Shown here: one piece after another, positions 16,344 to 63,876 of the stretch
Layout: every line of letters begins with the position of its first letter
Numbering within the stretch: the stretch's first letter is position 1
Source of the DNA: Eledone cirrhosa
Taxonomy: Eukaryota
Assembly (NCBI GenBank): GCA_964016885.1
Contig: OZ024743.1
Coordinates: forward strand, 314,092,001-314,156,000
DNA length: 64,000 nt
Direction of reading: 5' to 3'
Translations under genes and position numbers: made by a program
The notes under the pieces: generated by a model
Databases searched by the model: none
What the model saw: the letters and a program-made list of their open reading frames with translations, nothing else
What the model was told of the DNA's origin: nothing

Positions 16344-16394
<51 letters not shown>

Positions 16395-16397
<3 letters not shown>

Positions 16398-16592
16398 AGA
16401 AAAACCACAGGCCTCCCATCTCAATTCTACTTTTGAAACGCAAAAGAACTGCGAAACCGGTAAAGGAACCAAATAAATATATATTTAAAAAAAAAAGACT
16501 CCAGATGCATTTTCGATTTTATCTTTTCTCCTTATACATTCACTCGTGTATGAGACTTCGGTTATTTTTCATTTTGTAAAAAAAACCCTCAC

Positions 16593-16600
<8 letters not shown>
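16395..16600 (+). mobile_element. About 205-bp non-coding HHR-bearing element in (TA)n, second copy at 62441-62651
   Basis: Both copies start gtgagaaaaaccacag and end cctcactttctaat. Degenerate HHR at 16430-16465 (core TTGAAAC). Confidence 0.8.
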
Positions 16601-16639
<39 letters not shown>

Positions 16640-17141: not shown

Positions 17142-17270
<129 letters not shown>

Positions 17271-19009: not shown

Positions 19010-19147
19010 TCATAATTTTACGATCGTTTCTAGGATATATATGTGTTTGTTGGTATGTATATCATATAGATCTATGTAAACATTTTACAAACCAGCAGTG
19101 GAAATATACATACTTACACATATATATGCTGTCTTCAGAAATAATGA
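19010..19147 (-). ncRNA. Hammerhead with about 100-nt insertion at stem II
   Basis: tcattATTT-CTGAAGA-[101 nt]-GAAA-CGATCG-TA-AAATtatga. Stem I pairs at 8 of 9 positions and stem III is palindromic. Confidence 0.65.
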
Positions 19148-19879
19148 TATTTGTTTATTGAAAAAAGCCAACAAAGATTTAATATAATAGGTCTGTTTGG
19201 GAACAGGTTTTGAATTGACCAATAGAAAAGTAGTAAGTGGTCAAGTTGATAGAATAGTAGTAGTAGAAATTTAATTTAGAGGTAGAGGAATGCTGACTTC
19301 AGTTTTGAATGGAAAGACTATATTGAATGAAAGGATTACTTTGGGGATGAAAAGAGGTCAAGCTGGTGAAACGTACACGAACATTTGATGTTAATAAAGA
19401 CTAATGCTAATGTTAAAATCAAAGGAGAATAACATTCTAGGGTAAATGAGTTAGTGAGAAATATCAATCTTATGTAAAATACAAGGAATTTAGATATATA
19501 ACAAAAAATTTAATTAATTTAATTGAGAGGTATACTTATAGGGATAAATTCATATTTATTCATATAGATGTGATAAATAAGAGTTAGATGTTATTAAAGA
19601 ATGTTGTTAAAAACGAAGGGAAACATTTTTTAGGATAAATGTATTAGTGAGAAATAACAAACTTATATAGACTACAAGGAATTTAGATTCATAACAGGAA
19701 ATTAAAATAGTTTATATGTATACTTATAGGTACTGATTTTATGAAAAAATAGCTGTAAAAGGGAAATAAAATTATGAAGCTCTCAGTAGTAAAATACTAA
19801 TTATAGGTTAACTAAATTAAAAAAAATAATTATAATAATTTGTAAAGTATAAGTGTAAGGTGTATATTAATTAGGTTTA

Positions 19880-20798
19880 TAATAAACAAAATTCCTAATA
19901 ATCAGACTAAAACACCTCAATCAGTTAATCTAACTAAACCTATATATAATAAATTCACTAATACTAACTCTCTTAGTAAACATCCTGATACATCGTATAA
20001 ATATAAAAAACAACATCGAAGCCGTAATAGACGAGTTACTTGGTATAATGCTCCATTTAATCTACAAATTAAAGATAATATCCCTAAAAAAACATTTACT
20101 ATCCTAGAGAAAAACTTCCCGCCAAACCATAAATACCATCACATTTTAAATAGATCAACGGTTAAATTTACCTACTCGACTACCAAAAATATACAACAAA
20201 ATATAAGTGCCTACAATGCATATAAATGTAAAAAAAAACATGAATATACCACCAAACTAACCATAATACTAAAATATACTGCAACAAACCACCATCTCCT
20301 TCACATATAGTAAGTCGAGTAAGTTCCACACCAAATTTGACTAACTCCCCTGATATAATATTCACGAACGGTTGTAACTGTAGAAACAAAGGAAATTGCC
20401 CATTAAAAGGAAATTGTCTCATTAATAACATAGTATATAAATGTAAGATTAGCACTAAGGACTCAACTTATTCTTATATAGGAGCTACTTCTACCCAATT
20501 TAAAGTAAGATTTAATACCCACAAACATAGTTTTTAAAATGCCGCATTAGCTAATACAACATCATTGGCTGAAATAATTAATAATTATAGAAAAAAGAAT
20601 ATCGATTATAACCTGACCTGGAGTGTGCTGAAAAGGGCCACCCATAATCAAAATAGCAGACATGAGTGTAGATTATGTTCCCAGGAACTTTTTGAAATAA
20701 TGAAATCTAAGGATATCCTATTAAATAAGCGACAAGAATTAATTATATCGTGCAATCATAGAATTAGAAGAACTTTCAAATATTATAAACCTAATTAA
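19880..20798 (+). pseudogene. PLE thumb + GIY-YIG endonuclease (frameshift and a stop)
   Basis: RVTWYNAPFN...KNFPPNHKYHHILNRSTVKFTYS; GCNCRNKGNCPLKGNC..NNIVYKC...YIGATSTQFKVRFNTH; CRLCSQE...CNHR. Confidence 0.9.
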
Positions 20799-21484
20799 TT
20801 ATTTTTTTTAAATTTAGTTAACCTATAATTAGTATTTTACTACCTGAGAACTTCATAATTTTATTTCCCTTTTACAGCTCTCTTTTCCTAAAATTAATAC
20901 CTATAAGTATACATATAAACTATTTTAATTTCCTGTTATGAATCTAAATTCCTTGTAGTCTATATAAGTTTGTTATTTCTCACTAATACATTTATCCCCC
21001 AAATTTGTTCCCCTCGTTTTTAACAACATTCTTTAATAACATCTAACTCTTATTTATCACATCTATATGAATAAATATAAATTTATCCCTATAAGTATAC
21101 CTATCAATTAAATTAATTTAATTTTTTGTTATAGATCTAAATTCCTTGTATTTTAAATAAGATTGATATTTCTCACTAACACATTTACCCTAAAATGTTA
21201 TTATCCTTCGATTTTAACATTAGCATTATTATGTAATAACATCAAATTTTCGTGTACATTTCACCAGCTTTATCTCTTTTCATCCCCAAAGTAATCCTTT
21301 CATTAAAAGTAGTCTTTCCATTCAAAACTTAAGTCATCATTCCTCTATCCCTAAATTAAATTTATACTACTACTATTCGATCAACTTAACCACTTACTAC
21401 TTTTCTATTGGTCAATTCCGAAACAGACCTATTATATTAAATCTTTGTTGTTTTTTTTTCAATAAACAAATATCATTATTTCTG

Positions 21485-21844
21485 CGGTAGAGGGTCGGAC
21501 GCCATGCTTTGAAGCATAGAATTACGTCCCTTTATAATCTGAGTTCAAATCCCGCCGAGGTTAACTTTGCCTTTCATCCTTACGGGGTCGATAAAATAAA
21601 GTACCAGTAATGCACTGGGTATTTGCTGGCCTTGTGCCCAAAATAGAAACGATTATTTCTGAGTGGATTGGCAGTATCGGTAGAGGGTCGGACGCCATGC
21701 TTTGATGCATAGAGTTACGGCCCTTGCCATTTTGGGTTCAAATCCCGCCAAGGTTAACTTTGCCTTTCATCCTTACGGGGTCGATAAAATAAAGTACCAG
21801 TAACACACTGGGTAATTGCAGGCCTTGTGCCAAACGTAGAAACA
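21485..21844 (+). mobile_element. Two tandem tRNA-derived SINEs inserted in the PLE arm
   Basis: A-box tggcagtatcgg and B-box gttcaaatccc. attatttct(g) recurs at 21475, 21652 and 21845. Both SINEs are absent from the opposite arm. Confidence 0.9.
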
Positions 21845-22155
21845 ATTATTTCTCGAGACAGCATATATATTTGTAGGTATGTATATTTCCCCTGATAGTT
21901 TGTAACACTTTTACATAGATCTATATGATATACATACCAACACACACATATATCCTAGAGACGATCGTAAAAGGATGAATTTTTTAATATAAGGAACTGT
22001 TTCTTTGTTTTTATTCATTGTTTTTATTAATTTATCTTGACTGTTTTCCTGTGATTTTCATCGAAAAAAGTTTTGAATACATCTTCTCTTTTCATGATAT
22101 TTGGATTACATTGAGTTCTTCATACGGATTGGACACTACCGTATATTTTGGTAGA

Positions 22156-22230: not shown

Positions 22231-24860
22231 CATCTTCATCATCACCGTTTTAGGTCCGTTCTTCCACGCTAGAATGGGTTAGACGGGTTGTCCTGTTGTG
22301 GGCAGTGTCTGGTCGGCTGACCTTATCTGGCTTATACAGGAATTGATTCTGGCTTAATTTCTACAGCTGGATGCCCTTCCTAACACCAACCTCATTTACA
22401 GTGAGTGCTGGGTGATTTTTTTCCGTGGCGCCTACACGTCCACTTTACAGTGTGGGCTGGGTGCTTTTTTGCCGTGGCACCTCCAAGACCACTTTGCAGT
22501 GGGAGGGTGTAGGGGCATATTGTCTATATGCTTCAGCTTCGGCTTGTACCCGTGGGAGGTCGGGTACTCTGTATTTCTGCATGACGCCAGAGGTCACGGT
22601 CGTGTGTCATCGCCTTTGAAGTTGAAATAGGGTAAGGTCGGCTTTTATCGCCTCATCCCAGGTCTTCTTGGGTCTCCCCACTCCGCGGTTTCCATTGACT
22701 TCTAGTGCTCTGCACCTTTTTATGCAGCTGTCATCCTTCATACGCATCACATATCCATACCAACGCAAACGCCTCTCCTGCACACAGCATTTGATTCCTC
22801 TTATGCTCAATCTCTTTCTCAATTCATTTATGCTTTGCCGTTCGCGTATATTACTATTACACATCCATCGGAGCATGCAGGCTTCGTTTCTTTCTAATCT
22901 ACATGGCTTGTACAGCTTTCACAAGCCATTCATCTACTCCTAGTTTTCTAAGAGCCCGCCAGAGTATAGCACATGGAACTCTGTCAAAGGCTTTCTCGAG
23001 ATCGACGAATGCCAGGTAGAGTGGCTTACGTTTAGCTAGGTACTTTTCCTGTAACTGCCTCACCAGGAAGAGGGAATCAGTGGTGCCTCTTCCTGGTACA
23101 AACCCAAATTGCATCTCATCTAGTTTCACCCGGTCCCTAATCAACTGTGCTATAACTTTTTCTGTTACTTTCATGACCTGGTCCATCAGCATTATACCTC
23201 TATAGTTTCCTCTATCTAGTGCATCACCTTTACCTTTGTAGCAGTTGAAAATGATGCTACTGCACCAATCCTTTGGTATGACACCTTCTAATATTACCTG
23301 GTTAACAATACGTGCGGTTATAGTGTAACCTACCGACCCAGATGCCTTCAGCATCTCAGCAGCTATACCTGATGGACCGGTTGCCTTCCCCATCTTCATA
23401 TCTTTGATTTTTTTACTTACTACGCTGCTGCTGACTTGCACTGCTGGCCCCTCTATAGGGTCTACTTGGGGTAGGGTCTCTTCTTCCCATGCATTCTCCT
23501 CATATAATAATCTATCATAATGGCTCTTCCATGCATCTTTCTTCTCAGCAATTGTGAGGGCAAGCTCACCTTTATCATTCCGGATACACTTCTCTCCAAT
23601 GACATCACAATTCTCTCTGATACACTGCCTCGCAATCTTGAACACCTCCTGTTTCTGGTCCTCACGTTGCAAACCATGCTTGAATTTTCTATCCTCTGCT
23701 TCCCTCCTAGCTAAGTATACTTGTCGCCTAGCTTGCCTCCTGATCTCTATGTAATGTACCCTGCTTCCCCCGTTCTTCCATTCTTTCCATGCCTGTCTCT
23801 TGGCCTCAACTGCCTCATCTACCTTATTGTTCCACCACCAAGTCATTCTCCTCCTGCCCGTGGTCTTACTCCAGCCACAGATCTCATCCGTCGCCTCTAG
23901 TAAGTTATTTTTTAGGAATTCCCAGTGCTCTTCTACATTGAATGTCTCTATCTGTTCTTCTTTACTGTCGTAGGTGTTGATTAAAATATCTTTAAATCTA
24001 TTACTGGCTGAGGGGTCTTTCAGCTTCCAGATATTTCTTCTCCAGGTTGGCCTCTGTTTCCAGGTTCGTCTAGTTCTGACCGTGAGGTCGCTGACAACTA
24101 AGCTATGTTGGGAGGTACATTCCTCACTAGGGAAAGCTGTTGTGTTTACGACCGGCCATCTGTCACGTCCTCTGATGAGGATAAAATCTCTCTGACTAGA
24201 ATGCTCCTCTGATCTATATTTGATTAGGTGGTTGTCGGGTTTTTGGAACCCCATGGCCTCCATGGACTCTATTGAAGCCGTCACATTGTTTACCTACATG
24301 TCCGTTAAAATCTCCTGCACTGATTAGGAAGTCATTGTCGTTTATTAGAGCAGTAGTGTGCATTAGTGACTCGTAAAACCTATCTTTAAGTTCGTCTGGC
24401 AACCCCGATTGGGGTGCGTAAGCTGATATTATTGTGGTAATTGTTTTATTCAGGACTAGTCTGAGTTTAATGATTCTTGCATTCACCCTGTTCACTGAGA
24501 TTACTTTATCTACCCACTTGTCAGCTAGTAGAATACCTACACCACCCATCGCATCGTCATTTCCCACCCAGAAAAATTTGTAGCACTGGAGTTTTCCTAC
24601 AAGGACTCTAGCAGACTCTCCTCTCCAGCTAGTCTCTTGCACACAGCATACATCAATTTCCTTTCGCTCTAGCATCTCTACGATTTGTCCTGCTCTTCCT
24701 TTCATTGTGCTTACATTGATGGTACCAACTCGGAGTTTTGGGCATTTGTTAACATTCGTGGGGAAGGATCGATTTTTGCAGGGTGTGCGTGTGCTTCCTG
24801 TCTCTGAATTGAAGCTTCACATGGGTGCTTGGTAGAACGCGGATTCATATTCATTTTCAT
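22229..24860 (-). mobile_element. RTE-clade LINE (APE endonuclease + RT), frameshifted, RT core internally deleted
   Basis: DVCCVQET, ISAYAPQ, GDFNGHVG (24214-24705); YKGKGD..DRGNYRGI, QFGFVPGRGTTD, FVDLEKAFDRV (22899-24284); C-terminal RRLRWYG...GRPKKTW (22607-22876); (GAT)n-like tail near 22229-22244. Confidence 0.93.
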
Positions 24861-25453: not shown

Positions 25454-25519
<66 letters not shown>

Positions 25520-25524
<5 letters not shown>

Positions 25525-26025
25525 TAAGTATGTATACGTACATACATATAAGTATACAGACGTACAGTAGTATGTATGTATATATATATACATACATGCA
25601 CACATATATATATAAATATAAGTATGTATACGTACATACATATAAGTATACAGACGTACAGTAGTATGTATGTATATATATATACATACATGCACACATA
25701 TATATATGTACGTGTGGATTCACCGAACATTTATTATAATGCTCGGTGTGTTTGTAAACAAACATCCCGAATTAAACCGTACAAATGAGCAACGATGGTT
25801 ACTAGACACTGTACGGCTTAATTCTGGATGTTTGTTTACAAATACACCGAGCATTATAATAAATGTTCGGTGAATCCATACGTACATATATATGTGTGCA
25901 TATATGTATATATATATATACATGCTACTGTACATCTGTATACATATATATATGTACGTATACATACTTATATTTAAGTAACAGCCGTACTAAGAGTGAG
26001 AAATGAAATTTCGTTTCATTTTTCC

Positions 26026-26030
<5 letters not shown>
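25520..26030. repeat. Fold-back fragments of the 427-bp unit family (HHR segment missing)
   Basis: Matches 62755-63640. Minus fragment to about 25782 is joined to a plus fragment. (TA)n on both sides. Confidence 0.8.
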
Positions 26031-26085
<55 letters not shown>

Positions 26086-27310: not shown

Positions 27311-27446
27311 GTATATGTAAGCAGCCTGAAATAAAAGCCCACACTCTTCTTCAACTATCGCACTCAAAACGAAGACAGAATAGGGTGTAATGGCTAGGAA
27401 CATTTTGTTTATATCTCTGCTGATCTGAGACCAAGCATCTAGTAAT

Positions 27447-27563
27447 AATTGTTTCTACTTTTGGCACAAGACAAGCAATTACCCCAGTGTATTACTGGTA
27501 CTTTATTTTATCGACCCCGTAAGGATGAAAGGCAAAGTTACCCTCGACGGGATTTGAACTCAG
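27447..27563 (-). mobile_element. 5'-truncated SINE (degenerate copy at about 27770-27900)
   Basis: ttttatcgaccccgtaaggatgaaaggcaaagtt...gggatttgaactcag. Confidence 0.85.
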
Positions 27564-36703: not shown

Positions 36704-37226
36704 GAGAACATTCCGGATTAAAGAAATAACCTCAGAACCAAATGAAGAAACCAAAATAAGACAAAATCTACCACTCCAAGAAACTTGAGATAGAAATCAC
36801 TCTACTCCGTCTAAGAATGCCAAAATTTAAAGAAAAATTCGAAAAATAAGACACCACCATTAGAGAAGAATTAAACAAAAGAAGCATCGGTAATGTACTA
36901 GAAGAACTCTTTGACCTTTGGAAGAATGATACAACCAGAGAAGAATTGAAATCAAAGAAAATCTTGGAGTCAAGAACACAATAGCTACAAGAATATGAAA
37001 AAAACTATGGCAAAGTCCAAATAAAATCCAAAAAAACAAATCCATAAGAAACCCTCAAATTCGGGAATAACACAAGAAATGAAGAATTCTCACACAATAA
37101 ACACGCATCAACCAGAATCGGAGAATCCCAAACACACAATTATACACAAACCAAATACCGAACACCAGAACCAGATACAACTATCAAATCTCCAACAACA
37201 ATTACCAGCGGCAAAATCAAAGACAT

Positions 37227-38351
37227 ATGATGACCGAACGGAATAACAGAAATAGACACCCGTATATCAACCACCAAACAAAATACTACCGCTCAGAAAA
37301 TGATCAACATGAAATGCCGGCAAACAGAATATTTCACCACAACAGAAACACCGCTACCTCAAATGGGAATTATTTTTTAGAACAAGGTGCCTCCCACCAA
37401 ATGAAAGGAAAAAAGGAAACAAACACCACCCTTCAAGTGGCACCCGACGAGAAAACTCCAAAGGAACTAAAAATAATCAACATATCGGCCAAAAAACTAA
37501 CAACAGGAAATAAAATTGCTAGAAAATGGACTGAAATTCACACCCAATCCAAAGCAGATCAAGCCGACCTTATAAAAGACACAGAAGATTTTTGTCAAAA
37601 ATTATGTCTAGGAGAATTCTTCCAAAGTGTAGAATGCGAGGGGGAATCACTAGTGAGCGACAAAAAGAACTTCAGACCTCCATTAAATAGAGACAAACAC
37701 CTGGAGGATTACATAATCTGCCTCCGACGATCGGCACAGTCAAATACTGCAGAGACAAAACACAAACACAACATCCCTACAGACCAAATGCAAACACTAA
37801 ACAAACTACAAAAATACTCCTCAATAATCATAAAAGAAGCGGACAAAGGTGGAGCAATCATCATCATGATTGACAAGGATATGGTCCTACAACAGTTGAA
37901 TAACGAGGATCTTTACAGAAAAATCAGCCAAAACGAAGAAAGAAAATCGATGATTAAAGTAGGTAAGCTGACGACCAAGTACCAAGACAACCTCACACTA
38001 AAGGATATCAATTACTTAACCAACTTCGAAATGAAAATCAGAAACATCTAAGGTTTAACGAAGGTTCACAAATCCAGAGAAATACAAAACAACATAAAAG
38101 GCAAAAATATATCATATGTTGAAGTACCAAAACCGACAGATTTAAAATTACGTCCAATTGTTGCTGGTCCAGCCTCAAGCACACAACGTCTAAGCAACCT
38201 ATTAGACATCGTACTGAAATCCTTATGTAAAAAAGTGCCAAGCTTCATAAGAGATGATATGGAATTCCTGAACTATATCCCCCAGAAAGTACACCAAGAA
38301 ACAATCTTAGTCAGCTTTGACGTAACAAGCTTATATACTAACATCCCACAT
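37227..38351 (+). pseudogene. PLE reverse transcriptase N-terminal half (disrupted, truncated after motif A)
   Basis: IIIKEADKGGAIIIM; GLTKVHK...LRPIVAGPASSTQRLSNLLDIVL...FIRDDMEFL...LVSFDVTSLYTNIPH. Confidence 0.88.
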
Positions 38352-38640
38352 CATTCTATTATACATCGATGTGGACTGCTATTTCTAATATCCCACTTTT
38401 CACCTCTTAATAATTTGTGTGTGAAACACGCTGGCTGTGAGTGCTTTTGACGGGAACGAAAAGATTGGTTTTCTATTCTCCCGCCTCCACGTAAAATTAG
38501 TAAATCGGTGGCTAGTCGAGAGAGTCGTATCGGGTGCCAGTTGCTAATCGCTTTACCGTGTCGGTTGTCACAAACAGTCATGACCGGCATGGGTAGGGGG
38601 TTTGGATTCTGTCGATCGATTGGCTATTTATTAGGCTATA

Positions 38641-39770: not shown

Positions 39771-39774
<4 letters not shown>

Positions 39775-39982
39775 TTAATATAGATGAGATTCTACAGGAC
39801 TAGAACTGTTTCATTCTTTAGAAATCATCAGGAATCCTGTTTTACGTGGGATTCCTGATGATTTCTAATGATTGAAACAGTTCTAGTCCTGTAGAATCTC
39901 ATCTATATTAAAACTTTTATACTCTGCTATGTATTGAGTACCTTACTTACTGTGGTTACCTCCGATTTAACCCGGAATAACT
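39771..39982. mobile_element. Fold-back insertion with two divergent hammerheads
   Basis: 39771-39837 is the reverse complement of 39849-39915. (TA)n flanks. Confidence 0.85.
39849..39899 (+). ncRNA. Type I hammerhead (minus copies at 39787-39837 and 54045-54090)
   Basis: GGATTC-CTGATGA-[12 nt]-GAAA-CAG ttctagtc CTG-TA-GAATCT. Stem II (ttc taaa gaa) is intact in the minus copies. Confidence 0.85.
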
Positions 39983-40096: not shown

Positions 40097-40596
40097 TGTG
40101 TGTGCGTATATGTGTGTGTGAGTGTATGCTTTAATTCTTTCAAATCTTCATCAACACTCATTAACACGACACCCCACACCCAGACACATCCAAATCTTTC
40201 TTATATATACATATATATAGTCACACCTCACAACATAACCTGATCTCAGTTTGACAATCACCACCGACGAATGCGAGAAAGTTCTCCAACAAAGTTAACC
40301 AGGAATCTTTAAATTCTTCCCACCGAGTTAACAAAGAACTTACTAGATCTACCAACTCATAACATTAGAATATTATAAAATTAAATCAAATTATTTAACA
40401 CTACAAGTGAAGTCATTCTTTTCCTTTTTTTTTCAAATATACCTAACTGTACCAAGGATCTCACACATTTTCCAATATATACTGTATATATACATATGTA
40501 ATTATGCATACGTACACACATATATAGACACACACACACACATATATATCTATACATATACATATGTAAGCATGGGTTATATCGATCATTAATAAT

Positions 40597-40814
40597 GCGT
40601 TCTTCTATAGGCACAAGGCCAGCAATTTGGAAGCTGGGGAAAGTCGAATAAATCGATCCCAGTGTGTGACTGGTGTTTTATTTTACCGACTCCGTAAGGA
40701 TGAAAGGCAAAGTTAACGTCGGCGGAATTTGAACTCAGATCATAAAGGGCTATAACTCTATGCTGCAAAGCATGGCGTCCGACTGTCTCCCGATACTGCC
40801 AATCCACCGCCCTA
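40597..40814 (-). mobile_element. Full-length tRNA-derived SINE with TSD
   Basis: TSD tatcgatcat(t/c)aataat at about 40580 and 40815. A and B boxes on the minus strand. Confidence 0.88.
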
Positions 40815-41255: not shown

Positions 41256-41336
<81 letters not shown>

Positions 41337-42116
41337 ATGAATGTATATATAGTGCATTTGGTAATACACTGTATGCTTAATTAAAAGCATTTTGATGACC
41401 TTACGCTATTGTTTTAAAGTAGTGACTATGTCACTTCCTTTTTCAACAAACAAAGGGAGATAAGCACTCCCTTCGATTGTTGAAAATTATGAATGTTGGA
41501 TTCTTATAGAATTCCAGTAATAATCAGGAACTGATTATACAGACCGGTTGCCGAACCAGCAAACATTGAAAAGTATAACTTGTGCTCTGAAATAGCGATG
41601 TATGTATGAATGTATATATAGTGTATTTGGTAATACACTGTACGCTTAATTAAAATCATTTTAAAGACCTTACGCTATTGTTTTAAAGTAGTGACTTACT
41701 TCTTTTTTCAACAAACAAAGGGAGATAAGCTGACAGATCTCTGTTTCATACTGTTGGCATTCCTCAGAGCTTATCACTCCCTTTGCTTGTTGAAAACTAT
41801 GAATGTTGGATTCTCATATAATTCCAGTAATAATCAGGAACTGATTATACAGAGCGGTTGCCGGTCCAGCAAAAACTGAAAATTAGAATTGGTGCTCTGA
41901 AATAGCGATATATATATATATGAATGTATATATAGTGTATTTGGTAATACACTGTATGCTTAATTAAAAACATTTTGAAGACCTTTCGCTATTGTTTTAA
42001 AGTAGTGACTATGTCACTTACTTCTTTTTTTCAACAAACAAAGGTAGATAAGCTGACAGATCTCTGTTTCATACTGTTGGTATTCCTCAGAACTATTTTA
42101 AAACAATAGCGTAAGG
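41337..42116 (-). mobile_element. Retrozyme-like tandem array (about 320-bp unit, about 2.5 copies)
   Basis: Units start at 41337, 41606 and 41920. HHR in units 2 and 3. Short inverted segment at 42097-42116. Abuts (TA)n. Confidence 0.85.
41724..41775 (-). ncRNA. Canonical type I hammerhead
   Basis: GATAAGCT-CTGAGGA-ATGC caaca GTAT-GAAA-CAGA ga TCTG-TC-AGCTTATC, with stem I extended past a bulge. Confidence 0.92.
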
Positions 42117-44854: not shown

Positions 44855-44892
<38 letters not shown>

Positions 44893-44899
<7 letters not shown>

Positions 44900-46413
44900 G
44901 ACGTAAAATAAGAAAATTTTAAAAAAATTTAAAATTAACTTACTAACTAAAATTTTCACTCCAACTAATTAGTTTCTGTAATGGGATAGAGATAGTTACG
45001 TAATATAACCATCGAGAATTCATTACGTCATCAGGGAGTCTATTCTCAGCTAAGTCTCCAGGCAATGCGCGGACACTAGGGACTCATATAAAAATAATAA
45101 TAATTCGGTGGAAGGAACACCTAGCGGGGACTGGATTCCATGCACTGAAAAAGTTCGCTGCCTCTGGTCAAATGGCAGATTCTAAAGAATCAATCACGTG
45201 ACACTGAGGCTAGTCGGAAGGAGTGGGTTGGTAAGATGACAGAAGCCTACTACCACACCAATGAATTAGTAGCGGATTTGCCAGGTATGCTCAACAAATA
45301 AATAATTTGGAGATAAATACAGAGAATTAGTATATCTACCAACATATGCGTACAGATGTACACTAATGCTAGCAGATACATAAGTTATGTCATAGTACCT
45401 AGGTGGTTCAATGCAGGAGGATGCAGAATATGAAAGACGTAAAATAAGAAAATTAAAAAAAAAATAAAAATTAACTTACTTACTAAAATGTTCACTCCAA
45501 CTAATTAGTTTCTGTAATGGAATCCAGTCCCCGCTAGCTGTTCCTTCCACCGAATTATTATTATTTTTATATGAGTCCCTAGTGTCCGCGCATTGCCTGG
45601 AGACTTAGCTGAGAATAGACTCCCTCATGACGTAATGAATTCTCGATGGTTATATTACGTAACTATCTTTATCCCATTACAGAAACTAATTAGTTGGAGT
45701 GAAAATTTTAGTAAGTTAATTTTTAATTTTTTTTTAATTTTCTTATTTTACGTCTTTCATATTATTGTTCTGCATCTGCCTGCATTGAACCACCTAGGTA
45801 CTATGACATAACTTATGTATTTGCTAGCAGTAGTGTACATCTGTACGCATATGTTGGTAGATATACTAATTCTCTGTATTTATCTCCAAATTATTCATTT
45901 GTTGAGCAAACCTGCCAAATATGCTACTAATTCATTGGTGTGGTAGTAGGCTTCTGTCATCTTACCAACCCACTCCTTCCGACTAGCCTCGGTGTCACGT
46001 GATTGATTCTTTAGAATCTGCCATTTGACCAGAGGCAGCGAACTTTTTCAGTGCATGGAATCCAGTCCCCGCTAGCTGTTCCTTCCACCGAATTATTATT
46101 ATTTTTATATGAGTCCCTAGTGTCCGCGTATTGCCTGGAGACTTAGCTGAGAATAGACTCCCTCATGACGTAATGAATTCTCGATGGTTATATTACGTAA
46201 CTATCTTTATCCCATTACAGAAACTAATTTGTTGGAGTGAAAATTTTAGTAAGTAAGTTAATTTTTAATTTTTTTAAAATTTTCTTATTTTACGTCTTTC
46301 ATATTATGGTTCTGCATCTTCTGCATTGAACCACCTAGGTACTATGATATAACTTATGTATTTGCTAGCATTAGTGTACATCTGTACGCATATGTTGGTA
46401 GATATACTAATTC

Positions 46414-46417
<4 letters not shown>
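44893..46417. mobile_element. Retrozyme-like array, 538-bp unit: about 1.2 minus copies joined to about 1.7 plus copies
   Basis: Period 45518 to 46056 and 45619 to 46157. One HHR per unit, no coding signal, (TA)n on both sides. Confidence 0.88.
44958..45039 (-). ncRNA. Hammerhead with extended stem II and palindromic stem III (plus copies at 45619-45700 and 46157-46238 have core CTCATGA)
   Basis: ACTCC-CTGATGA-[51 nt]-GAAA-CTAATTAG-TT-GGAGT. Confidence 0.82.
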
Positions 46418-46445
<28 letters not shown>

Positions 46446-48138: not shown

Positions 48139-48714
48139 AAGTACGTACAGTAGAAATATCGTTATGAGATTTCTGGGCCATTTATTGTGGTCCTTAACTT
48201 AAAATAACATTGTAGATAAAAAAATACTTTGCAAGTTTTTGTTCTTTTGCTTTCAAATTAGATTTCGCTCATGAAAAATTATCCAAAAGATTATACCTTG
48301 ACGAATAAAACCTACTAATATGCTAATAAAATATGAAAAAAAAATACTAATATTAACTCTTCTTCATTTAAACCATTGTTTCTACATTTAAACAATTGTT
48401 TCAATATTTAGCACAAGGCTAGTAATTTTAAGGGAAAGAAAATATCGATTAAATCGATCCTACTTCGTTACTGAGGTTTATTTTATCGACAGTTTAAGGA
48501 TGAAAGGAAAAGCTAACCTCTGCGGGATTTGACCTCATACCGTAGAAGTCGTAACATCATACACAAGAAAGTTTGTCCGACTTTCAGCCGATACTACTAA
48601 TCCACTGCAACTATAAACAACGACAACAGTAAACTTCAATATATGCCGTCGTTACAAATAATTGTTAAATACCACTCTTTTCCGCAGAGAAGTCATACTG
48701 TTCACTTAAATAAT

Positions 48715-48900
48715 TGTTTCTACGTTTGGCACACGGCTAGCAATAACACAGTACATTACTGGTACTTTATTTTATCGACCCGTAAGGATGAAAGGCAAAG
48801 TTAACCTCGGCGGGATTTGAACTCAGAATGGCAAGGGCCGTAACTCTATGCGTCAAAGCATGGCCTCCGACCCTCTACCGATACTCTCAATCCACCGCCA
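48715..48900 (-). mobile_element. tRNA-derived SINE with TSD (older copy at about 48395-48605)
   Basis: Family core sequence, flanked by tgttcacttaaataat and tgtacacttagataat. Confidence 0.88.
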
Positions 48901-53255: not shown

Positions 53256-53826
53256 GTGAAACTTAAGTAAGTAAGTTAATTACTATAATTTTCTTATTTT
53301 GCGTCTTTTATATAATTGTTCTACATCATTTTCTATTGAATCACACAGTTACTAAGACAAAACCTATATCTCTGCTAGCGTAAGTATACATCTGTATAAA
53401 TATGTTGGTAGATATACTAATTCTTTATAATTATCTCCAAATTATTTTGTTGAGCAAAAATTTGCCTAAATTACTACTATGGTTCATAGTATCAGTTTGG
53501 CTACTCTCTTTTTAACACCCCACTCCCCACTGATTAACCTCGATGTCACGTGATTGATTCTTTTGAAATGTCCACTGACCGGGAAGGCAGTGAAATGTTC
53601 AGTGTCTGGAATTTAGACCGCGCTTGCTTTTTTCCACCCACTGAATTATTTTTGTTTGAGCTCCCTGTGTCTGCCTATTTCCAGGAATATTAGCCGAGAA
53701 TTGACTCCCTGATGAAGAAAGGATTCTCTATAGTTTCCATTTGAACAATATATATATCCCCTTTCAGAAACTAATTAGTTGGAGTGAAACTTAAGTAAGT
53801 TAATTACTATACTTTTCTTATTTTAC

Positions 53827-53828
<2 letters not shown>
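53256..53828 (+). mobile_element. Diverged 1.1-unit copy of the 538-bp retrozyme-like family
   Basis: Terminal direct repeat gtgaaacttaagtaag...ttcttatttt at 53256 and 53784. (TA)n on both sides. Confidence 0.85.
53704..53785 (+). ncRNA. Hammerhead with intact core
   Basis: ACTCC-CTGATGA-a GAAAGG ... CCTTTC a-GAAA-CTAATTAG-TT-GGAGT. Confidence 0.85.
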
Positions 53829-53891
<63 letters not shown>

Positions 53892-54202
53892 AACAAGTAG
53901 GACCCCGACGGCTGAGCTCAAGCCATCGGGGTCCTACTTGTTCCTATTACCCACTCTACTACCCTAAGTATTGTGTACTTCGGTGCGTTATGGTCCATCT
54001 GGTTCCTTATGACATTTCCTTCGTTATATATATATATAGATGATATTCTACAGGACTAGAACTATTTCATTCTTTAGAAATCATCAGGATTCCTATTAAG
54101 GACTCATCAAGGCAAGTAAAGCTATAAGGAGCACTATCGGCCAATACAAGCCAAAAAACTAGTAAGAAAAGCCTTGACCTTATTATATCAGCCGTTGGGG
54201 AA

Positions 54203-55828
54203 ATGGTTAATTTTAACCTATGGGGGAACACTAAGGAAGTTATAGATTGGTTCTCTGGGATTAATAAACTTGAATCTAATAAGTTTATCCAGTTCGATAT
54301 TGATGCCTACTACACATCGATTTCACCCATCCTCCTCAATAAAGCCTTAATGTTGGCTATGAGAGTGTCCAGCCTTACACGATCACAGGTAGATGTTATA
54401 CTAGCAGCCCGTAGAACTATCATTAATTTTGAGGACACATTTTGGACCCGTAAAAACACGCCCAACAATTTCGACGTTACAATTGTTTCGAATGATTCAG
54501 CCCAGGTAACTGATCTTGTTGGGTTGTTCCTCCTAAATGAACTATATGTTACCTTTCCGCACCTTAAAGGCGGACTATATCGTGATGATGCATTGTTTGT
54601 GATTAACTCTAGCACCAACAATGTCGAGCATAATAAGAAGAAGCTTTATAAGTTTTTTAAAAGCTATAACCTTTCGATCACGATAGATAGAAACGATAGA
54701 GCGGTCAACTTTTTAGATGTGACTTTGGACTTGGTGACTAATAGTTTTAAACCCTTCCATAAGCCTAATGAAATACTCTCTTATGTTAGTCCCAATTCTA
54801 ACCACCCCAAATCTATGATAAGCTCTATAATTAATGGTGTATCTAATAGAATTTCCACACTCTCTAAGGACATAGGAATATTTAATGCACATGCAGAGTA
54901 CTATAATAATTCCCTAGCTAACTCCGGTTACTCTGGTAAAATACATTATAATAATAGTAACCTTAGAAAGTCTCCGCTTACATATAATAATAATAACATA
55001 ATATCCCATAATATGGCCATGAATGGGAGTAGAAAGCATAAGAATCGTATAAATCCCATAGGTGTATCCGAACCCATCCATAAGTTAAGCCACCGGATTC
55101 GTAATAGGGAATCTAATAGTTCTAGGGATCAAGTTGGGCACTCTGAGCGCTCACTCAGTGGTAATGCTTTTGCTAAATCTAATGTTTTTACTAATTCTAA
55201 TAGTGTTGTTTCTACTGATCCTATTAGTAGCCCTAATCCTATTGATATGATTCCAGATAGCAGTAGATATACTAAAGGTAGAAACAGAAGGAGACTCAAT
55301 GGGGTTTCGGCTGATTCTAATAATGTGGTTTCAACTAGTCCTCGTAGTAACCCAGATCTTAATAATGGGATATTAGATAACGGTAGAGTTGGTAAGGATA
55401 GAAATAGAAGGAGACTAAATACTTATTTTAACCCGCCATATGATCAGGAAGTATTAACTAACATCCATAGGTCTTTCTTTTCTATCTTAGAGAAAAATGT
55501 CCCTCCTACTAATAAATACCATGGTATTTTTAATAAAAATGTAATTAAACTATCATTCTCTACCACCCCTAATATTAGTTCTCATTTAGCTAGCACTAAC
55601 AATAGGAAAATTAGGGACCGCTACTCCTCTTTGCGTAATACTAGTCTGGATAGATCCATAAATGCCTTACCACCTGAGCAGACCTTATCTCATAGTAACA
55701 CTACGAGTGATGCATCACTACTTCAGCCGATCAATAGCACCCGGAATTGTAACTGTAGAGTGAGTGTTAACTGCCCTTTAAACGGTAACTGCCTCTCTAG
55801 GGGACATTGTTTATGCTTGTGTAGTTAA
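54203..55828 (+). CDS. PLE reverse transcriptase core + thumb + Zn-linker (partial, probably pseudogenic)
   Basis: FIQFDIDAYYTSI, FDVTIVSNDSAQVTDLVG, GLYRDD, VNFLDVTLDL, SNHP, YFNPPY, CNCRVSVNCPLNGNC. Confidence 0.9.
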   Translation: MVNFNLWGNTKEVIDWFSGINKLESNKFIQFDIDAYYTSISPILLNKALMLAMRVSSLTRSQVDVILAARRTIINFEDTFWTRKNTPNNFDVTIVSNDSAQVTDLVGLFLLNELYVTFPHLKGGLYRDDALFVINSSTNNVEHNKKKLYKFFKSYNLSITIDRNDRAVNFLDVTLDLVTNSFKPFHKPNEILSYVSPNSNHPKSMISSIINGVSNRISTLSKDIGIFNAHAEYYNNSLANSGYSGKIHYNNSNLRKSPLTYNNNNIISHNMAMNGSRKHKNRINPIGVSEPIHKLSHRIRNRESNSSRDQVGHSERSLSGNAFAKSNVFTNSNSVVSTDPISSPNPIDMIPDSSRYTKGRNRRRLNGVSADSNNVVSTSPRSNPDLNNGILDNGRVGKDRNRRRLNTYFNPPYDQEVLTNIHRSFFSILEKNVPPTNKYHGIFNKNVIKLSFSTTPNISSHLASTNNRKIRDRYSSLRNTSLDRSINALPPEQTLSHSNTTSDASLLQPINSTRNCNCRVSVNCPLNGNCLSRGHCLCLCS

Positions 55829-56200
55829 AACTAATTCCTCTAATAGCACATATATAGGCTCAACATCTAACACTTTTAAGACTAGGTTTAATTCTCATAT
55901 CTCTAATTTTAAACATGTTAAGTTTAAGAATTCTACTTCTTTAGCACACCATATCTGGGATCTTAGGGGGCTAATATACCATATAGCCTTAATTGGCGAA
56001 TAGTAGCACGCTCTAATAACCTATCAACACACACTAAATTCTGTAATCTCTGTACCCTTGAGACCCACTCTATAATTTTCTCTAGGGAACTCTTACGTAA
56101 TAGAAAGTCTGAGATATTTTCTTCCTGCCCCCACGCCATTTCTAATTCTTACTTTTATTATAAACTTAAAAGTTCTGGTAGTGTAAATTGTATCCATTAG
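55803..56200 (+). pseudogene. GIY-YIG endonuclease, frameshifted from the upstream ORF
   Basis: DIVYACVV...TYIGSTSNTFKTRFNSH...STSLAHHIWDL; CNLCTLE...SEIFSSCPH. Confidence 0.88.
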
Positions 56201-57575
56201 CTGCTATATTCCCTTATCTTTTTTTGTTTAGGTTCATTTTGTTTACCACCATCATTATCATTATTATTATTGGTTTTTAACAGCTTCTCGATCTAGCTTT
56301 CATAGTTTTTTGGCTACCATACCATATCTATCTTCTTAAATATTATATTTTCACTATTAACACATTATGAGTTTATATCTGATTATATATTTTATTTGGA
56401 TTCTCATTTAGATAATTAATCCCCTCCTCCTCTTCCTCCCTTTCCCCCCCACACACTTGTCATTCGCCCCTTCAATTATACTATAATTATGTTCAATTCC
56501 CTTTTATGCTCCTTTCTATTGTATTATACAGTATATTGATTATGATTTTATGCTCCTTCGTATCCTACATACCTTTCTTTTTTCTGTTCTCATTGGCCTA
56601 CCATAGTTCTATTTAAGGTCCTTTTATTAGATAACGTTATTCAACGTTATTTAACTTTTATTAGATAACGTTAAAGTAGAATATTTCATTCTATTCTGGA
56701 TATTTTTATTGAGATATCTTAAACTTTAGAGACTTTGATAACTTAAACCATAGCTAATTTTGTATTGACTTATTATGTATTTTAAATACTTTCAATATTA
56801 ATTAATTTAATAAGGTTTTCTAGTTATTTATCCGGGTTTGATTCCTAACTTTTTTTACTTAACTGCTTGTGACACCTAAGTAAATATATTTGTTTTTGTT
56901 TTTCGATTTCCGGTTGATTTTATTTATATTTTTTTTACTACCGTGCATAGTTTCTGTCTGGTTCTTATTCACTTATTCACATATGTCTGTCTACCAACCA
57001 TGTAATTATGTATACTATACTATGTTTGTTATTTGATATTGAAGTTGTTATATCATATCACTTTATGTAATCGTACTATAGATCTTAAATATTTACCGAT
57101 TATTCGATGTACCCTTATGTTAAATTTTGTAAATTCTGTAATATGTTTATATTTTTATAATTTTTATAATGTTTAGATAATATTTATTTATACCAATTGT
57201 ATAAAAACTCGACCTCCGTCTGTTTTGTTACAACAGTATAGATATTTTTCCAGCACAATTTTTTCAACACAATTCAGTTCTTTATTATATTTTTTTCTCA
57301 CCCTGTGTGTAAATTTATATGATTTGTTAAGTTATATGCCAATATTTTATAATATTGTTATTATAGTGTTATTGTAATATTTATATTGTTTGTGCAAATT
57401 GACCGGAGATTATAAATTATATAGTATATTATATATTATATTTTTATTTTTATTCATTTCTTTATTATTTTATACTGTAAATAATATATGTATTATATTT
57501 ATATTTAAACTCTTAATAAGTGTTAGTTTGTGTTTGTATTGATGGATATGTATATTGATATATATATATGTATAC

Positions 57576-57681
<106 letters not shown>

Positions 57682-57950
57682 ATATTGGGTCTTTTAATAT
57701 TATTATTATTATCATTATCAATTATATTATATTATATTATATATCGTACTGTAATTCTCGCTTTATATCACCACTTGTGTTTAGTTTTAGTTTTTGCATT
57801 GTACTATATTTGTAATATGGGTTCATAATGTTATTCACTTCCTTAGCAATTTTTACTTGATCATTTTCCTATGCTTTAATGTATGTATACTCCATATTCT
57901 TCTGAGTTTTTGGCTTGTATTAGCCGATAGTTCTTCTTATAGCTTTACTT

Positions 57951-57988
57951 GCCCTGATAAGTCCTTAATAGGATGAAACATTGTTGGC
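57951..57988 (+). ncRNA. Hammerhead at PLE 3' end (G8A in this copy)
   Basis: GCC-CTGATAA-GTCCT taat AGGAT-GAAA-CATTG-TT-GGC. Confidence 0.7.
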
Positions 57989-58136
57989 TAATAAAGACTG
58001 TTGATGTATTGAAGGCTTCTTTGGTTTATTTTCATAATTCTTCGGCTCTGTTTAATTTACATTGAGCTATATATTTACTGTCATTTCTATAATATGAAGA
58101 GGGTGTTTAACTCCAACACACTCTAGTATTTTAATT

Positions 58137-59827: not shown

Positions 59828-61242
59828 GTAATAATAATAAATTTGAAAGACTAAAATCCAAAGAGAGCTCGATAAGGAAAAATATATATCAAATATATAA
59901 GAACCGTAGGGCAAATATTTATTAAAATAACACATTAAAGTTTAAGCAAAAATCGCTCCTTCACCCTTAACGGGATCTTCTGAAAGTAAAAAAAATCAAT
60001 CTGTGAACGCAGAAGTAAATATTTCGAAAAACATTGCAACCGACGTCTACGCCTCCTCACCTTGCACATAACACCATTACTGCAAATTTAGCTAAATTAC
60101 CTAGCCATAGGAACACGTGCAACCCTGTAGCTAGTATTAACTGTAATTGTAGGAATCGGGTTGACTGCCCTCTATCCGGGAAATGCCTCTCCAGTAACAT
60201 TGTCTACAAATGTAAGGTCGAAACGCCCACGTCCCGTAGGGCCTACATAGGGTTAACCGCCAATAGATTCAAGCACCGTCTTTACATGCACACGCATTCT
60301 TTTTTTAACCCTTTAAGAAGGAATATGACGTCACTTTCAGCTCATATCTGGAGTCTAAAAGACAACCACACCCAATAAAACATTCCTGTATTACAGCCCC
60401 ACATTATACCCTAACGGATAGTACGAACAATACGCGGATAATTTACGTCTTGATGTGGTAGCTAAGTATATTTTATGTTTATAAAGAACGCATTTTTATA
60501 CCATTACTTATTTGTATAGATAAGTATACATTACTCGTATGTTTTGTGAAGGTACGTATATTTTCTGGTACGTATATTTGCTTGTATTTGTTATAGGTGT
60601 ATATATTATATTATATATAATGGTACAGGTGTATAATGTTATTTGTATATGTGTATTTTGTGTTTGCATGTGTATGCGTCTTTGAACGTATGTAAGGTGT
60701 GTATATGTATACTTTGTGTTTTGGTTGATGTAGGTTTAGTGAACATATGTGTATTTACCTCTAGGTATGTGTGTGTGTGCGTTATTTACGTATTTATGCT
60801 TGTATATTTATATACATTTATATAATTATATGCGTGCATGCGTGTATGTATATATTTAATTATTGTTGATTTCAATAACCTCGGTCATTTACGTTCTACT
60901 AATTTATTTAGATTATTCTTAACTTTGAAGCCGAGAATCATTCGGTTTCCTAAATAGAATATTAATCTACGACTTCATTTATACCATAAACGTGGTTTTG
61001 TCTTTAGGTGTAATTGTTATCTTTGGTCCACATTATGACGTATTATCTTCACTTTTTTCCGTTCAATGCCAGAGCAAGTCTTTCGCGAACCAAAGTATCA
61101 TCTTCCTGTCTTGCTTCGGTTGCAACGTTTTTCGAAATATTTACTTCTGCGTTCACAGATTGATTTTATAAGTTTCAGAAGATCCCATTAAGGCTGAAAG
61201 CAGCGATTCTTTGCTTAAACTTTAATCTGTTATTTTTATAAA
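59828..61242 (+). mobile_element. PLE remnant: 5' inverted arm, GIY-YIG fragment (60040-60378), 3' UTR, HHR
   Basis: About 59915-60042 is the reverse complement of 61117-61243. NCNCRNRVDCPLSGKC..NIVYKC...AYIGLTANRFKHRLYMH...SLSAHIWSLK. Fold-back fragment of the same family at 63652-63880. Confidence 0.87.
61170..61222 (+). ncRNA. Hammerhead-like fold with CAGAAGA (U4A) core
   Basis: AAGTTT-CAGAAGA-tCCC attaa GGCt-GAAA-GCAG cgattct TTGC-TT-AAACTT, plus distal stem acagattga/ttaatctgt. Minus copies at 59938-59985 and 63674-63726. Confidence 0.7.
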
Positions 61243-61814
61243 TATATATATATGGTTACCTGAACCAAAGATCTAGTATTCACAATGAAAAAAGGCGCGA
61301 AATGTTCGTCTATGGAATTGTATTGGCTAATCATAAAATGTTCCTATAGATTTTCAATATAATGCATAATTTCCAAAAGGATTAAACACTACGCACTTAT
61401 ATTTCCTTCATAGATAAACGATATCAATAATTTTACATCCAATTTCCCATTCTTGTATTTATCATTTAATTTTTAATTTCTTGATTTCATTTTAACTTCA
61501 GTTTCCCAGAAGCTAGATTTAACACTTAAATTTCATAATAATCTAGTTTACCTTCATCAATAACCTGCTCATTGGTCACGTTTTCAACGTTTTGTAAAAA
61601 GTATTAAAAATTTAGAAAAGTTTTCCATCATCTACGTTATATTAATTCAGTTCTCAATTACACGCTATAGGTCAAATTTATACACCACCTTCTTAATTGT
61701 TTATACTAAAACATATACTGGTATACTATCATATATATACATCTGTGCCCGTGCATATCTTATATATATATATACACACACGCACTAACACACACTCACA
61801 CACATACACACACG

Positions 61815-61850: not shown

Positions 61851-62474
61851 ATGTTTGTGTGTATGTGTGTGTTTTTGTATGTATATGCATATGTGCGTCT
61901 GTGCGTGAGTGTGTGTGTGTATTAGGAGAGTTAAATGCATTTCATGACATGAGTGAATATTAGAGAATTTTCGGTTCGTTAGACTTTCCAAAAATAGATT
62001 TACAACGGGCTGTTATTGATAAAAAATGCATTAGATACAATAAGTTGATTATAATTCGGACAAAAGTAACTGAGAGCCTGACATGAATTATATTTGCATA
62101 GATGGATCTCCGATGATCATATTATTGTGTTGCTAAAATTATCGAAGCTGCTAAGTGAATTACACCTTTCTCAATTCTCTCACTCACAAACCTAATTTCA
62201 GACAAATTCAACAATTTCGATGCAATGATACACACTTATAAATATGTAAGTCAGATAAGAACGCATACACACACACACACACACACATATACTGTATATA
62301 TATATATATATATATATAAAAGGAAAAAATGAAACGAAATTTCATTTCTCACTCTTAGTACGGCTGTTACTTAATTATAAGTATGTATACGTACATACAT
62401 ATATGTATACAGACGTACAGTAGTATGTATATATATATATGTGAGAAAAACCACAGACCCTCCATCTCAACTCA

Positions 62475-62512
62475 CCTTTTGAAAAGCAGAAGAACTGCGA
62501 AACCGGTAAAGG
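62475..62512 (+). ncRNA. Compact hammerhead, U3-A8 core, in the 205-bp element 62441-62651
   Basis: CCTT-TTGAAAA-GCAG aagaa CTGC-GAAA-CCGG-TA-AAGG. All stems are perfect. Confidence 0.85.
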
Positions 62513-62644
62513 AACCAAATAAATATATATATTTAAAAAAAAAATAAGACTTCAGTTGCATTTTCGATTTCATCCCTTTTTCTTTATACTTCCACTCATG
62601 TAGGACACATCGGTTATTTTTCATTTTGTAAAAAAAAACCTCAC

Positions 62645-62687
<43 letters not shown>

Positions 62688-62960
62688 CACACATATATAT
62701 ATGTACGTATGGATTCACCGAACATTTATTATAATGCTCGGTGTGTTTGTATATATATGTATGTACGTGTACATACTTATATTTAAGTAACAGCCGTACT
62801 AAGAGTGAGAAATGAAATTTCGTTTCATTTTTTCCGTTTATCGTTTTCGGTACCCCGGCCGATTAACTCACTCGATATGCAAATTAGGCTGCTCAGCCGT
62901 TAATATGCATAAGGAAAGTATATACTTTCAGACGTTCAACCATCTGGCAGGAAGGTATAC

Positions 62961-62999
62961 GTTGCTGACGATAGCCAATAAGCTTGAAACTAGTACAGC
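62961..62999 (+). ncRNA. Type I hammerhead (second copy at 63386-63428)
   Basis: GTTG-CTGACGA-tAGC caataa GCTt-GAAA-CTAG-TA-CAGC. Confidence 0.88.
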
Positions 63000-63876
63000 A
63001 TTCTTTTGTCAGTGTTGAACAAATGACCAACGATGGTTGCTAGACACTGTACGGCTTAATTCGGGATGTTTGTTTACAAACACACCGAGCATTATAATAA
63101 ATGTTCGGTGAATCCATACGTACATATTTATATGTGTGCATGTATGTATATATATACATACTACTGTACATCTGTATACATATATGTATCTACGTATCCA
63201 TACTTATATTTAAGTAACAGCCGTACTAAGAGTGAGAAATGAAATTTCGTTTCATTTTTTCCGTTTATCGTTTTCGGTACCCCGGCCGATTAACTCACTC
63301 GATATGCAAATTAGGCTGCTCAGCCGTTAATATGATTAAGGAAAGTATATACTTTCAGACGTTCAACCATCTGGCAGGAAGGTATACGTTGCTGACGATA
63401 GCTAATAAGCTTGAAACAAGTACAGCGTTCTTTTGTCAGTGTTGAACAAATGAGCAACGATGGTTGCTAGACACTGTACGGCTTAATTCGGGATGTTTGT
63501 TTACAAACACACCGAGCATTATAATAAATGTTCGGTGAATCCATACGTACATATATATATGTGTGCATGTATGTATATATATATACATATACATACTACT
63601 GTACGTCTGTATACATATATGTATGTACGTATACATACTTATATATATACATATTTATTAAAATAACAGATTAAAGGTAAAGCAATGAATAGCTGCTTTC
63701 ACCCTTAACGGGATCTTCTGAAACTTAAAAAAATCAATCTGTGAACGCAGAACCGATTTTTGCTTAAACTTTAATCTGTTATTTTAATAAATATCTGATT
63801 TACGATTTTTATATATTTGATATATATTTATCCTTATCGAGCCCTCTTTGGATTTTAGTCTTCAAATTTATTATTA

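Follow-up and report, generated by a model that had tools for sequence, protein, structure and literature searches.

In this study, we found that an array near the 45-kb position of a 64,000-nt stretch of Eledone cirrhosa DNA (the window) is made of a 538-nt unit which, judged by its sequence, is probably (about 0.72) a non-autonomous, non-coding non-LTR retrozyme of an octopod genome, derived from or parasitic on a Hydra-clade Penelope-like element (PLE). As in non-LTR retrozymes, there is one type I hammerhead ribozyme (HHR) per unit (two of the four carry the change G5C), the units follow one another head to tail (1.67, 1.17, and ~1.1 periods), and the monomer is non-coding, a few hundred bp long, and low in GC (0.34-0.38, within <45-50%). 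As in PLE insertions, the target is (TA)n, a partial tandem is accompanied by an inverted 5'-truncated copy, and the HHR lies near the 3' end. Thus, the term retrozyme, given to the array in an earlier note on this DNA, is supported as far as sequence can test it.

The unit shows no trace of coding capacity. The longest stop-free stretch in doubled units is 78 aa, and a PLE profile of 24 homologues found no match in the unit (best E 0.2; controls E 1e-16 to 1e-36). Classification as an autonomous Hydra-clade PLE was rejected, since the unit has no ORF for RT with GIY-YIG endonuclease at the C terminus. Unlike Hydra PLEs, it contains neither an ORF nor a remnant of one, and its period is 538 nt rather than 2-3 kb. 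Neither insertion of the 538-nt family in the window adjoins an ORF of its own.

The array and its diverged relative

Self-BLAST and alignments resolved the array into a minus arm of 629 nt and a plus arm of ~900 nt (Table 1), in agreement with the previously proposed inverted-plus-tandem layout of a 538-bp unit (~1.2 minus joined to ~1.7 plus units). At their head-to-head junction the arms have four bases, ATGG, in common, which fall in the 3' strand of stem II of the partial HHR in the minus arm and ~105 nt upstream of the HHR core in the plus arm. The previous placement of the junction (about 45520) within the stem II domain therefore holds for the minus arm, but was dropped as a signal because it is a single case and the HHR fills ~15% of the unit. 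The 3' ends of both arms point outward, into (TA)n.

The repeats of the array are far above chance (BLAST E 1e-173 to 1e-55), and the full plus and minus units (P1 and M1) differ at 17/532 sites and by 2 indels. A diverged relative, copy D, is 78% identical over aligned bases. The period from cleavage site to cleavage site is 538 nt in the plus arm, 536 nt in the minus arm, and 528 nt in copy D. BLAST found no further copy of the unit in the window except one weak 45-nt match, and the array and copy D are the only two insertions of this family open to study.

Several other signals were considered in the unit. ARAGORN reported 0 tRNA genes and hence no sign of a tRNA-derived SINE head. A signature of A-to-I editing was not seen between P1 and M1, where A/G changes make up only 1/17 of the substitutions. 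A 20-nt block with an E-box-like CACGTG (~45988-46007 and ~53544-53563) is identical between the subfamilies and is a candidate internal promoter, but it does not stand out, as ~0.8 such blocks would be expected at this 78% identity (estimated by hand). A GTAAGT followed by a pyrimidine tract and YAG (45711-45797, unit ~+16 to +102) is kept in both subfamilies and may represent a short intron that was retained, as happens in Penelope; this pattern too is not beyond chance, and its donor-like letters also pair in an extension of stem I. A search for relatives of the unit among prokaryotic genome contigs and phages gave 0 matches, and no host function of the array is indicated.

Table 1. Features of the array and of copy D (positions in the window)
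Position	Strand	Feature
44855..44895		(TA)n tract, left boundary; target site, no separable TSD
44892..45520	-	Inverted arm (outer end 44892/44896), 1.17 units; 3' end ~+70 past the HHR cleavage site, sharing ATAT with (TA)n
44958..45039	-	Type I hammerhead, intact; core CTGATGA at 45034-45028; 51-nt domain II; GUU cleavage after 44963
45331..45380	-	Conserved long hairpin with AUCU tetraloop, unit ~+120 to +170
45494..45520	-	Inner, junction-side end of the minus arm
45517..45520		ATGG, 4-nt microhomology at the head-to-head junction
45517..46420	+	Tandem arm (outer end 46417/46420), 1.67 units; 3' end at unit +184, sharing TAT with (TA)n
45619..45700	+	HHR copy whose core, CTCATGA, has G5C; probably inactive
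45816..45865	+	Conserved AUCU-loop hairpin; z -3.6 for 45810-45885
46157..46238	+	HHR copy, G5C and broken stem III palindrome, probably inactive
46357..46406	+	AUCU-loop hairpin; motif stops 33 nt before the 3' end of the arm
46418..46445		(TA)n tract, right boundary
53256..53828	+	Copy D: one 528-nt unit and ~50 nt; 5' end +3/+4 past the cleavage site; 3' end aligned with that of the minus arm; (TA)n on either side
53367..53416	+	AUCU-loop hairpin of copy D; upper stem with G-C replaced by A-U; 53362-53432 has z -4.0
53704..53785	+	Type I hammerhead of copy D, intact, with covaried stem II GAAAGG/CCTTTC

The hammerhead ribozymes

A motif scan located type I hammerheads at 45034(-), 45624(+), 46162(+), and 53709(+), and constrained folds support all four of these full-length positions. 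They are built from stem I (ACTCC/GGAGT), the core CTGATGA with a single additional base, a stem II of 6 bp that carries a loop of 37 nt, an additional A, GAAA, a stem III lying within the palindrome AACTAATTAGTT, and the cleavage triplet GUU. The minus arm and copy D retain the canonical core (CUGANGA / GAAA / NUH) together with three stems, and in both the two halves of the core are separated by a stem II domain of 51 nt, which is unusually long; extra opposed bases lie beneath stem II in the HHRs of the array and of copy D. Rfam gave no hammerhead among the 150 matches listed of 173 for the whole window, nor at E<=10 for the array and copy D, so the HHR call rests on the motif scan and the stems rather than on a library match. 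By itself, the HHR region folds no better than shuffled sequences (z -0.6 and +0.6).

Both plus-arm HHRs (45624 and 46162) read CTCATGA, that is G5C, whereas that of the minus arm (45034) reads CTGATGA, as had been noticed before; copy D (53709) likewise reads CTGATGA. Changes at G5 cripple hammerheads, and both plus-arm ribozymes are probably dead through G5C. In the second of them the stem III palindrome is also broken (AACTAATTTGTT; homoduplex -1.6 vs -10.8 kcal/mol). The array does not count as an 'active' retrozyme locus under the rule of Li et al. (2026), since its only two consecutive full HHRs (45624 and 46162) both have CTCATGA.

The hammerhead appears to be under purifying selection, a view supported by comparison of the minus arm with copy D. 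Stem I, the cores, and stem III with the flanking GAA are identical at 35/35 nt, against 78% overall (0.784^35 = 2e-4), and the sharing of stem I and palindromic stem III with the 53.7-kb copy, claimed earlier, is therefore confirmed. Stem II changes from GTAATG/CATTAC in the minus arm to GAAAGG/CCTTTC in copy D with pairing kept, again as claimed, and with the 51-nt spacing unchanged; 2/6 pairs are double-changed (T-A to A-T and T-A to G-C) and 0 are broken. This covariation, which is one contrast between two lineages, has P of about 0.001-0.006 in simple nulls and was reached in 23/500 cases of a shuffle with only 4 rows. The proposal of the earlier note that structure is under selection is thus supported for the hammerhead, on a single lineage contrast.

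Covariation across the whole unit is equivocal. When the minus fold was scored on copy D, 10-12 double changes were found vs 2.4-4.4 expected (P<=0.002), but the reverse direction gave 2-3 vs 2-3 expected (P 0.4-0.8), and the P1 fold gave P 0.02 as a circle and 0.15 as a linear molecule. We do not claim it, because the result depends on direction, P was as low as 0.04 in the antisense control, and the conditional test gave no significant value (P 0.06-0.34). A candidate tertiary contact between stem I and stem II, a 6-bp pseudoknot (GAGAAU/AUUCUC), is identical in the two subfamilies, although only 18/37 positions of loop II are identical in an ungapped comparison; it has P=0.14 per sequence and no covariation. 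Pseudoknots between stem I and stem II are described as common in hammerheads (PMC3088659).

The HHR resembles those of Hydra PLEs in several details. In the 26 rows of the Hydra HHR table (PMC8557442 File S2, counted by eye), 15/26 have opposed unpaired bases under stem II, 17/26 have an ACT..AGT stem III, and 10/26 have U at position 17, all three of which are also seen in the 538-nt unit. The opposed bases are C.A or A.A in the unit and mostly U.U in Hydra, and loop II is 37 nt in the unit vs <=10 nt in the 26 rows (PMC8557442). A long spacer between the core halves, missed by standard descriptors, is shared with the HHR of PLE-X1_sMoe and the Naiad 'HHR_half_core' as presented in PMC8557442 (35-nt loop 2; 35-50 nt spacing); unlike these, the HHR of the unit has all three stems and a stem II that covaries. 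A specific link to the Naiad_Ovul 'half core' was rejected, as its 3' end shows no resemblance by eye and no motif matched in the supplement, where 70-letter line breaks can hide matches.

Metazoan non-LTR retrozymes, as described in the main texts of PMC7229834 and bioRxiv 10.64898/2026.07.22.740005, are likewise tandem repeats that code for no protein and are low in GC (34-38% in the 538-nt unit); they too have a type I HHR whose stem III is a short palindrome, and they occur together with PLEs. The 528-538 nt of the unit lie above the 150-450 bp of the former source and inside the 51-972 bp of the latter. Unlike metazoan retrozymes, the array has a 51-nt domain II and G5C in both tandem HHRs, and neither an inverted arm nor a cephalopod host appears in these main texts. 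In the literature searched, which left most subscription papers outside, we found no cephalopod retrozymes or inverted retrozyme insertions; the supplements of PMC7229834 and the preprint may include cephalopod cases.

Ends, template, and competing explanations

All three 3' ends of the 538-nt family overlap (TA)n by a few bases, and two of the three coincide: copy D and the minus arm stop at the same aligned site (~+70, array numbering). The plus arm stops at +184, so the two arms end at different sites. At its other end, copy D starts 2-3 nt after the cleavage site; a start within 4 nt is expected by chance in ~4/528, a figure obtained post hoc. For copy D, this start favours a linear template that would have been trimmed by the HHR. 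Hydra-clade PLEs such as Hydra-1_Obim are alike in their (TA)n target, partial tandem with an inverted 5'-truncated arm, fixed termination sites, and 3' ends located downstream of the HHR by tens of nt up to ~150 nt (PMC8557442).

In the explanation we prefer, a multi-unit transcript would be partly cut by its HHRs, probably as a dimer via the palindromic stem III; against this, only 1/9 predicted retrozyme dimers were active in vitro in the work of Li et al. (bioRxiv 10.64898/2026.07.22.740005). A Hydra-type RT/GIY-YIG protein would nick both strands of a (TA)n tract, and cDNA would be primed from each nick at internal RNA sites past the last HHR, ~+70 and +184. The two cDNAs would then run back through uncleaved HHRs, truncate, and join at ATGG to give the inverted arm and the tandem arm. 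Copy D would result from one-sided synthesis that reached the 5' end left on its RNA by HHR cleavage. G5C and the other differences may have arisen in the donor, or later through conversion between repeats. Against this explanation, an autonomous partner with matching pLTR sequence was not found in the window, and five short motifs of the unit were absent from the PMC8557442 supplement, matching no listed Hydra family there in a motif search in which 70-letter line breaks can hide matches.

A biochemical parallel is provided by PAc, an Anolis Poseidon PLE, whose protein was shown in vitro to extend both strands, to initiate at two internal sites downstream of the HHR, and to accept uncleaved RNA as template (PMC11167929). 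Like PAc, the 538-nt unit has 3' ends at two unit-internal sites past the HHR, beside a stem-loop, arms that end at different sites, a one-sided 'tail', and apparently copied uncleaved HHRs. Unlike PAc, the sites are ~115 nt apart vs 30-40, the stem-loop is not AC-rich, the ends have short TA microhomology, and the unit is non-coding and belongs to a different clade. It is also stated in PMC11167929 that the RT starts of PAc are not homologous to the target and that no RNA reads end at the HHR site, findings which count against over-reading the parallel.

Alternatively, within the same class of element, each arm may have been copied from a different circular monomer by the rolling-circle model of Cervera and de la Pena, with the plus arm coming from a G5C circle unable to re-cleave. 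We regard this as unlikely. In its favour, G5C stands in both plus HHRs, site 124 is common to P1 and P2 against M1 and D, P0 and P1 are only 2/178 nt apart (P=0.07 against 3.2%), and the cleavage site is crossed twice by each arm. Circularised sense monomers fold better than shuffles (z -3.8, -5.8, and -2.9, 30 shuffles each; antisense weaker, -1.0 to -1.9) with the HHR partly unblocked, and circles of metazoan retrozymes are documented in PMC7229834. However, on a circle nothing would make the RT halt 2-3 nt from the cleavage site, where copy D begins, and the three 3' ends and the one free 5' end lack the permuted starts that had been suggested earlier as a test for a circular template. Moreover, repeats are no more alike within an arm than between arms (8/361 vs 17/532, P=0.42); M1 and M2 differ at 6/70, and D1 and D2 at 3/46 and by an indel. 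The diagnostic sites conflict with one another as well: unit sites 124 and 467 (the latter being G5C), which are polarised, group the copies by arm, at the neighbouring sites 43-44 the copies fall together by rank irrespective of arm, and site 432 cuts across both groupings. With this clash, the earlier suggestion that the arms came from different template molecules, or that the tandem duplicated after mutation, is not established. One conversion or parallel event is needed under one-RNA and two-template models alike, and the same sites do not show both arms to be derived from one RNA.

The unit could instead be the orphaned pseudo-LTR (pLTR) of a coding PLE, inserted in 5'-truncated form and afterwards multiplied in place, at the DNA level, through unequal crossover, so that the short unit itself would not retrotranspose; a route of pLTR plus unequal crossover is proposed in bioRxiv 10.64898/2026.07.22.740005. 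The Hydra PLE type of the HHR, the coding relics in the window with the same inverted arms, and the position of Xenopus retrozymes as sister to pLTRs in that preprint would suit such an origin. We nevertheless consider it improbable, since all three arms or copies close a 528-538-nt period without an ORF remnant, and two subfamilies 22% apart have the same unit length, separate (TA)n-bounded insertions, and a common 3' end. Nor is copy D the pLTR of the neighbouring PLE at 54128, which carries its own HHR (57954), pLTR, and inverted piece. Still more remote is a later fold-back or ectopic DNA rearrangement of a simple tandem, or a chimeric-read assembly artefact. The arms do make up an inverted repeat of 630 bp (95%) with a spacer of ~150 nt, and the rank-shared sites 43-44 match the register of such a hairpin; however, the arms differ by 3.2% and by indels, the inverted arm retains G5 and C124, which are ancestral, and on its outer side stops at the same point as the 3' end of the independent copy D, and the same geometry recurs in unrelated families of the window.

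Related elements in the window and implications

For the ORF at 54128 there are 24 homologues, and the four that carry an organism name come from Argonauta hians and Octopus bimaculoides, which makes an octopod host probable. The linker CNCRVSVNC (CxCX5C) and endonuclease pattern CxxC..E..N..CxH of this ORF place it in the Hydra clade by the definition in section 11 of PMC8557442, which states that Hydra-clade PLEs insert into (TA)n and always carry HHRs. The four named octopod proteins match six loci in the window, five of which have a flanking inverted arm, in a check of 11 regions hand-picked from self-BLAST and motif results. Hydra-like relics lie at 40-988, 6399-6815, 9781-11368, 19136-21484, and 59915-61245, all but the 6.4-kb relic with a flanking inverted arm, and a 5'-truncated, frameshifted Hydra-like PLE occupies 54034-57990 (RT 54128-55828, EN to ~56150, HHR-like pLTR at 57954). 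The inverted 5' piece of the latter is fused within stem II, over a few common bases, to an HHR RNA of the 39.8-kb family, which suggests a template switch between two HHR RNAs.

Non-coding HHR families also occur. A 427-nt retrozyme-like family (62316-63647 and 25464-26085; HHR cores 62965 and 63392) consists of an inverted arm and 2.1 tandem units, the arm being interrupted by an element also present at 16348-16635, and at either locus its arms have two distinct ends, +214/217 and ~+270. A third retrozyme-like family (41319-42116, minus strand) has 2.4 tandem copies of a ~323-nt unit with HHR cores at 42090 and 41767, a third unit without the HHR segment, a 25-bp inverted arm at the 5' junction, and a 3' end in (TA)n. 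Three head-to-head palindromes (6980-7951, 17269-17653, and 39771-39915) carry HHR-like cores on either strand; in those at 17.3 and 39.8 kb, one arm halts at (TA)n and the other continues. With inverted arms at five of six PLE relics, inverted-plus-tandem layouts in the 427- and 323-nt families, and the three palindromes, the layout of the array is the local norm; this geometry is described for PLEs in PMC8557442, and HHR pairs on opposite strands 100-700 bp apart are noted in PMC4209133. Compared with seven PLE or HHR regions of the window, the 538-nt unit gave only short AT-rich matches.

Further repeats complete this setting. A PLE-like RT relic with a DKG motif (37101-38450) is not matched by Hydra queries, and a LINE-like relic (22899-24816, minus strand) matches Pfam RVT_1 (E 9e-14) and has an endonuclease-like upstream frame. 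A short (TA)n-inserted family (53890-54030, 11408-11637, 5443-5622, and 12256-12435) has a strong terminal hairpin or inverted arm, and an HHR core was not found in it. An abundant SINE-like dispersed repeat, sometimes tandem or head to head, is present at 13102-13313, 14706-14896, 21485-21856, 27438-27563, 40592-40811, and 48411-48899.

The 538-nt and 427-nt families have one notable similarity, the motif RTACRTCTGTAY (E 0.004-0.005), which occurs 10 times in the window, 4 times in the former and 6 times in the latter, vs 0.22 expected from shuffles for a pattern built post hoc, after the copies had been seen. In the 538-nt family the motif belongs to a long hairpin with an AUCU loop, well supported in both subfamilies, between which one G-C pair is replaced by A-U. 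Local folds form the loop in all 10 copies (P 0.66-1.0); in the 427-nt family the hairpin, with a TA-rich stem, is found in 6/6 local 50-nt folds and is absent from whole-unit and 81-nt folds, and the geometry of a 20-pair hairpin is common in TA-rich DNA (3499 windows with >=17 pairs). The 3' ends lie 33 nt beyond the motif in the plus arm and ~32-35 nt beyond it in two copies of the 427-nt family. It is possible, though doubtful, that unrelated octopod retrozymes have in common a cis-acting hairpin, RTAC-RTCT-GTAY, placed downstream of the HHR cut by 134-180 nt, which would recruit the Hydra PLE protein and set a preferred RT start 33-35 nt beyond it. Each inverted-plus-tandem insertion would then represent two primings of a linear, HHR-trimmed multimeric RNA, rather than a circle, at two fixed sites, and the ribozyme would be an extended, possibly pseudoknotted hammerhead. 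If true, this would offer a minimal natural substrate for the formation of PLE inverted arms and tails and for the hijack of PLE enzymes by retrozymes.

In summary, the element class of the array is already known, and what is added is a modestly unusual hammerhead and informative ends. As hammerheads with a long domain II were missed by Rfam in the window, counts of cephalopod HHRs may be underestimates. The origin of retrozymes from PLEs has already been argued from co-occurrence and pLTR trees. This locus adds anatomical evidence, in that a short non-coding HHR unit itself appears to have been inserted with PLE geometry, namely (TA)n, an inverted arm, and two end sites, and copy D provides an example of a copy starting at the ribozyme cut. 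These features bear on two questions in the cited papers, namely the template of retrozyme insertion, a circle or a linear multimer, and the way in which the inverted arms of PLEs originate.
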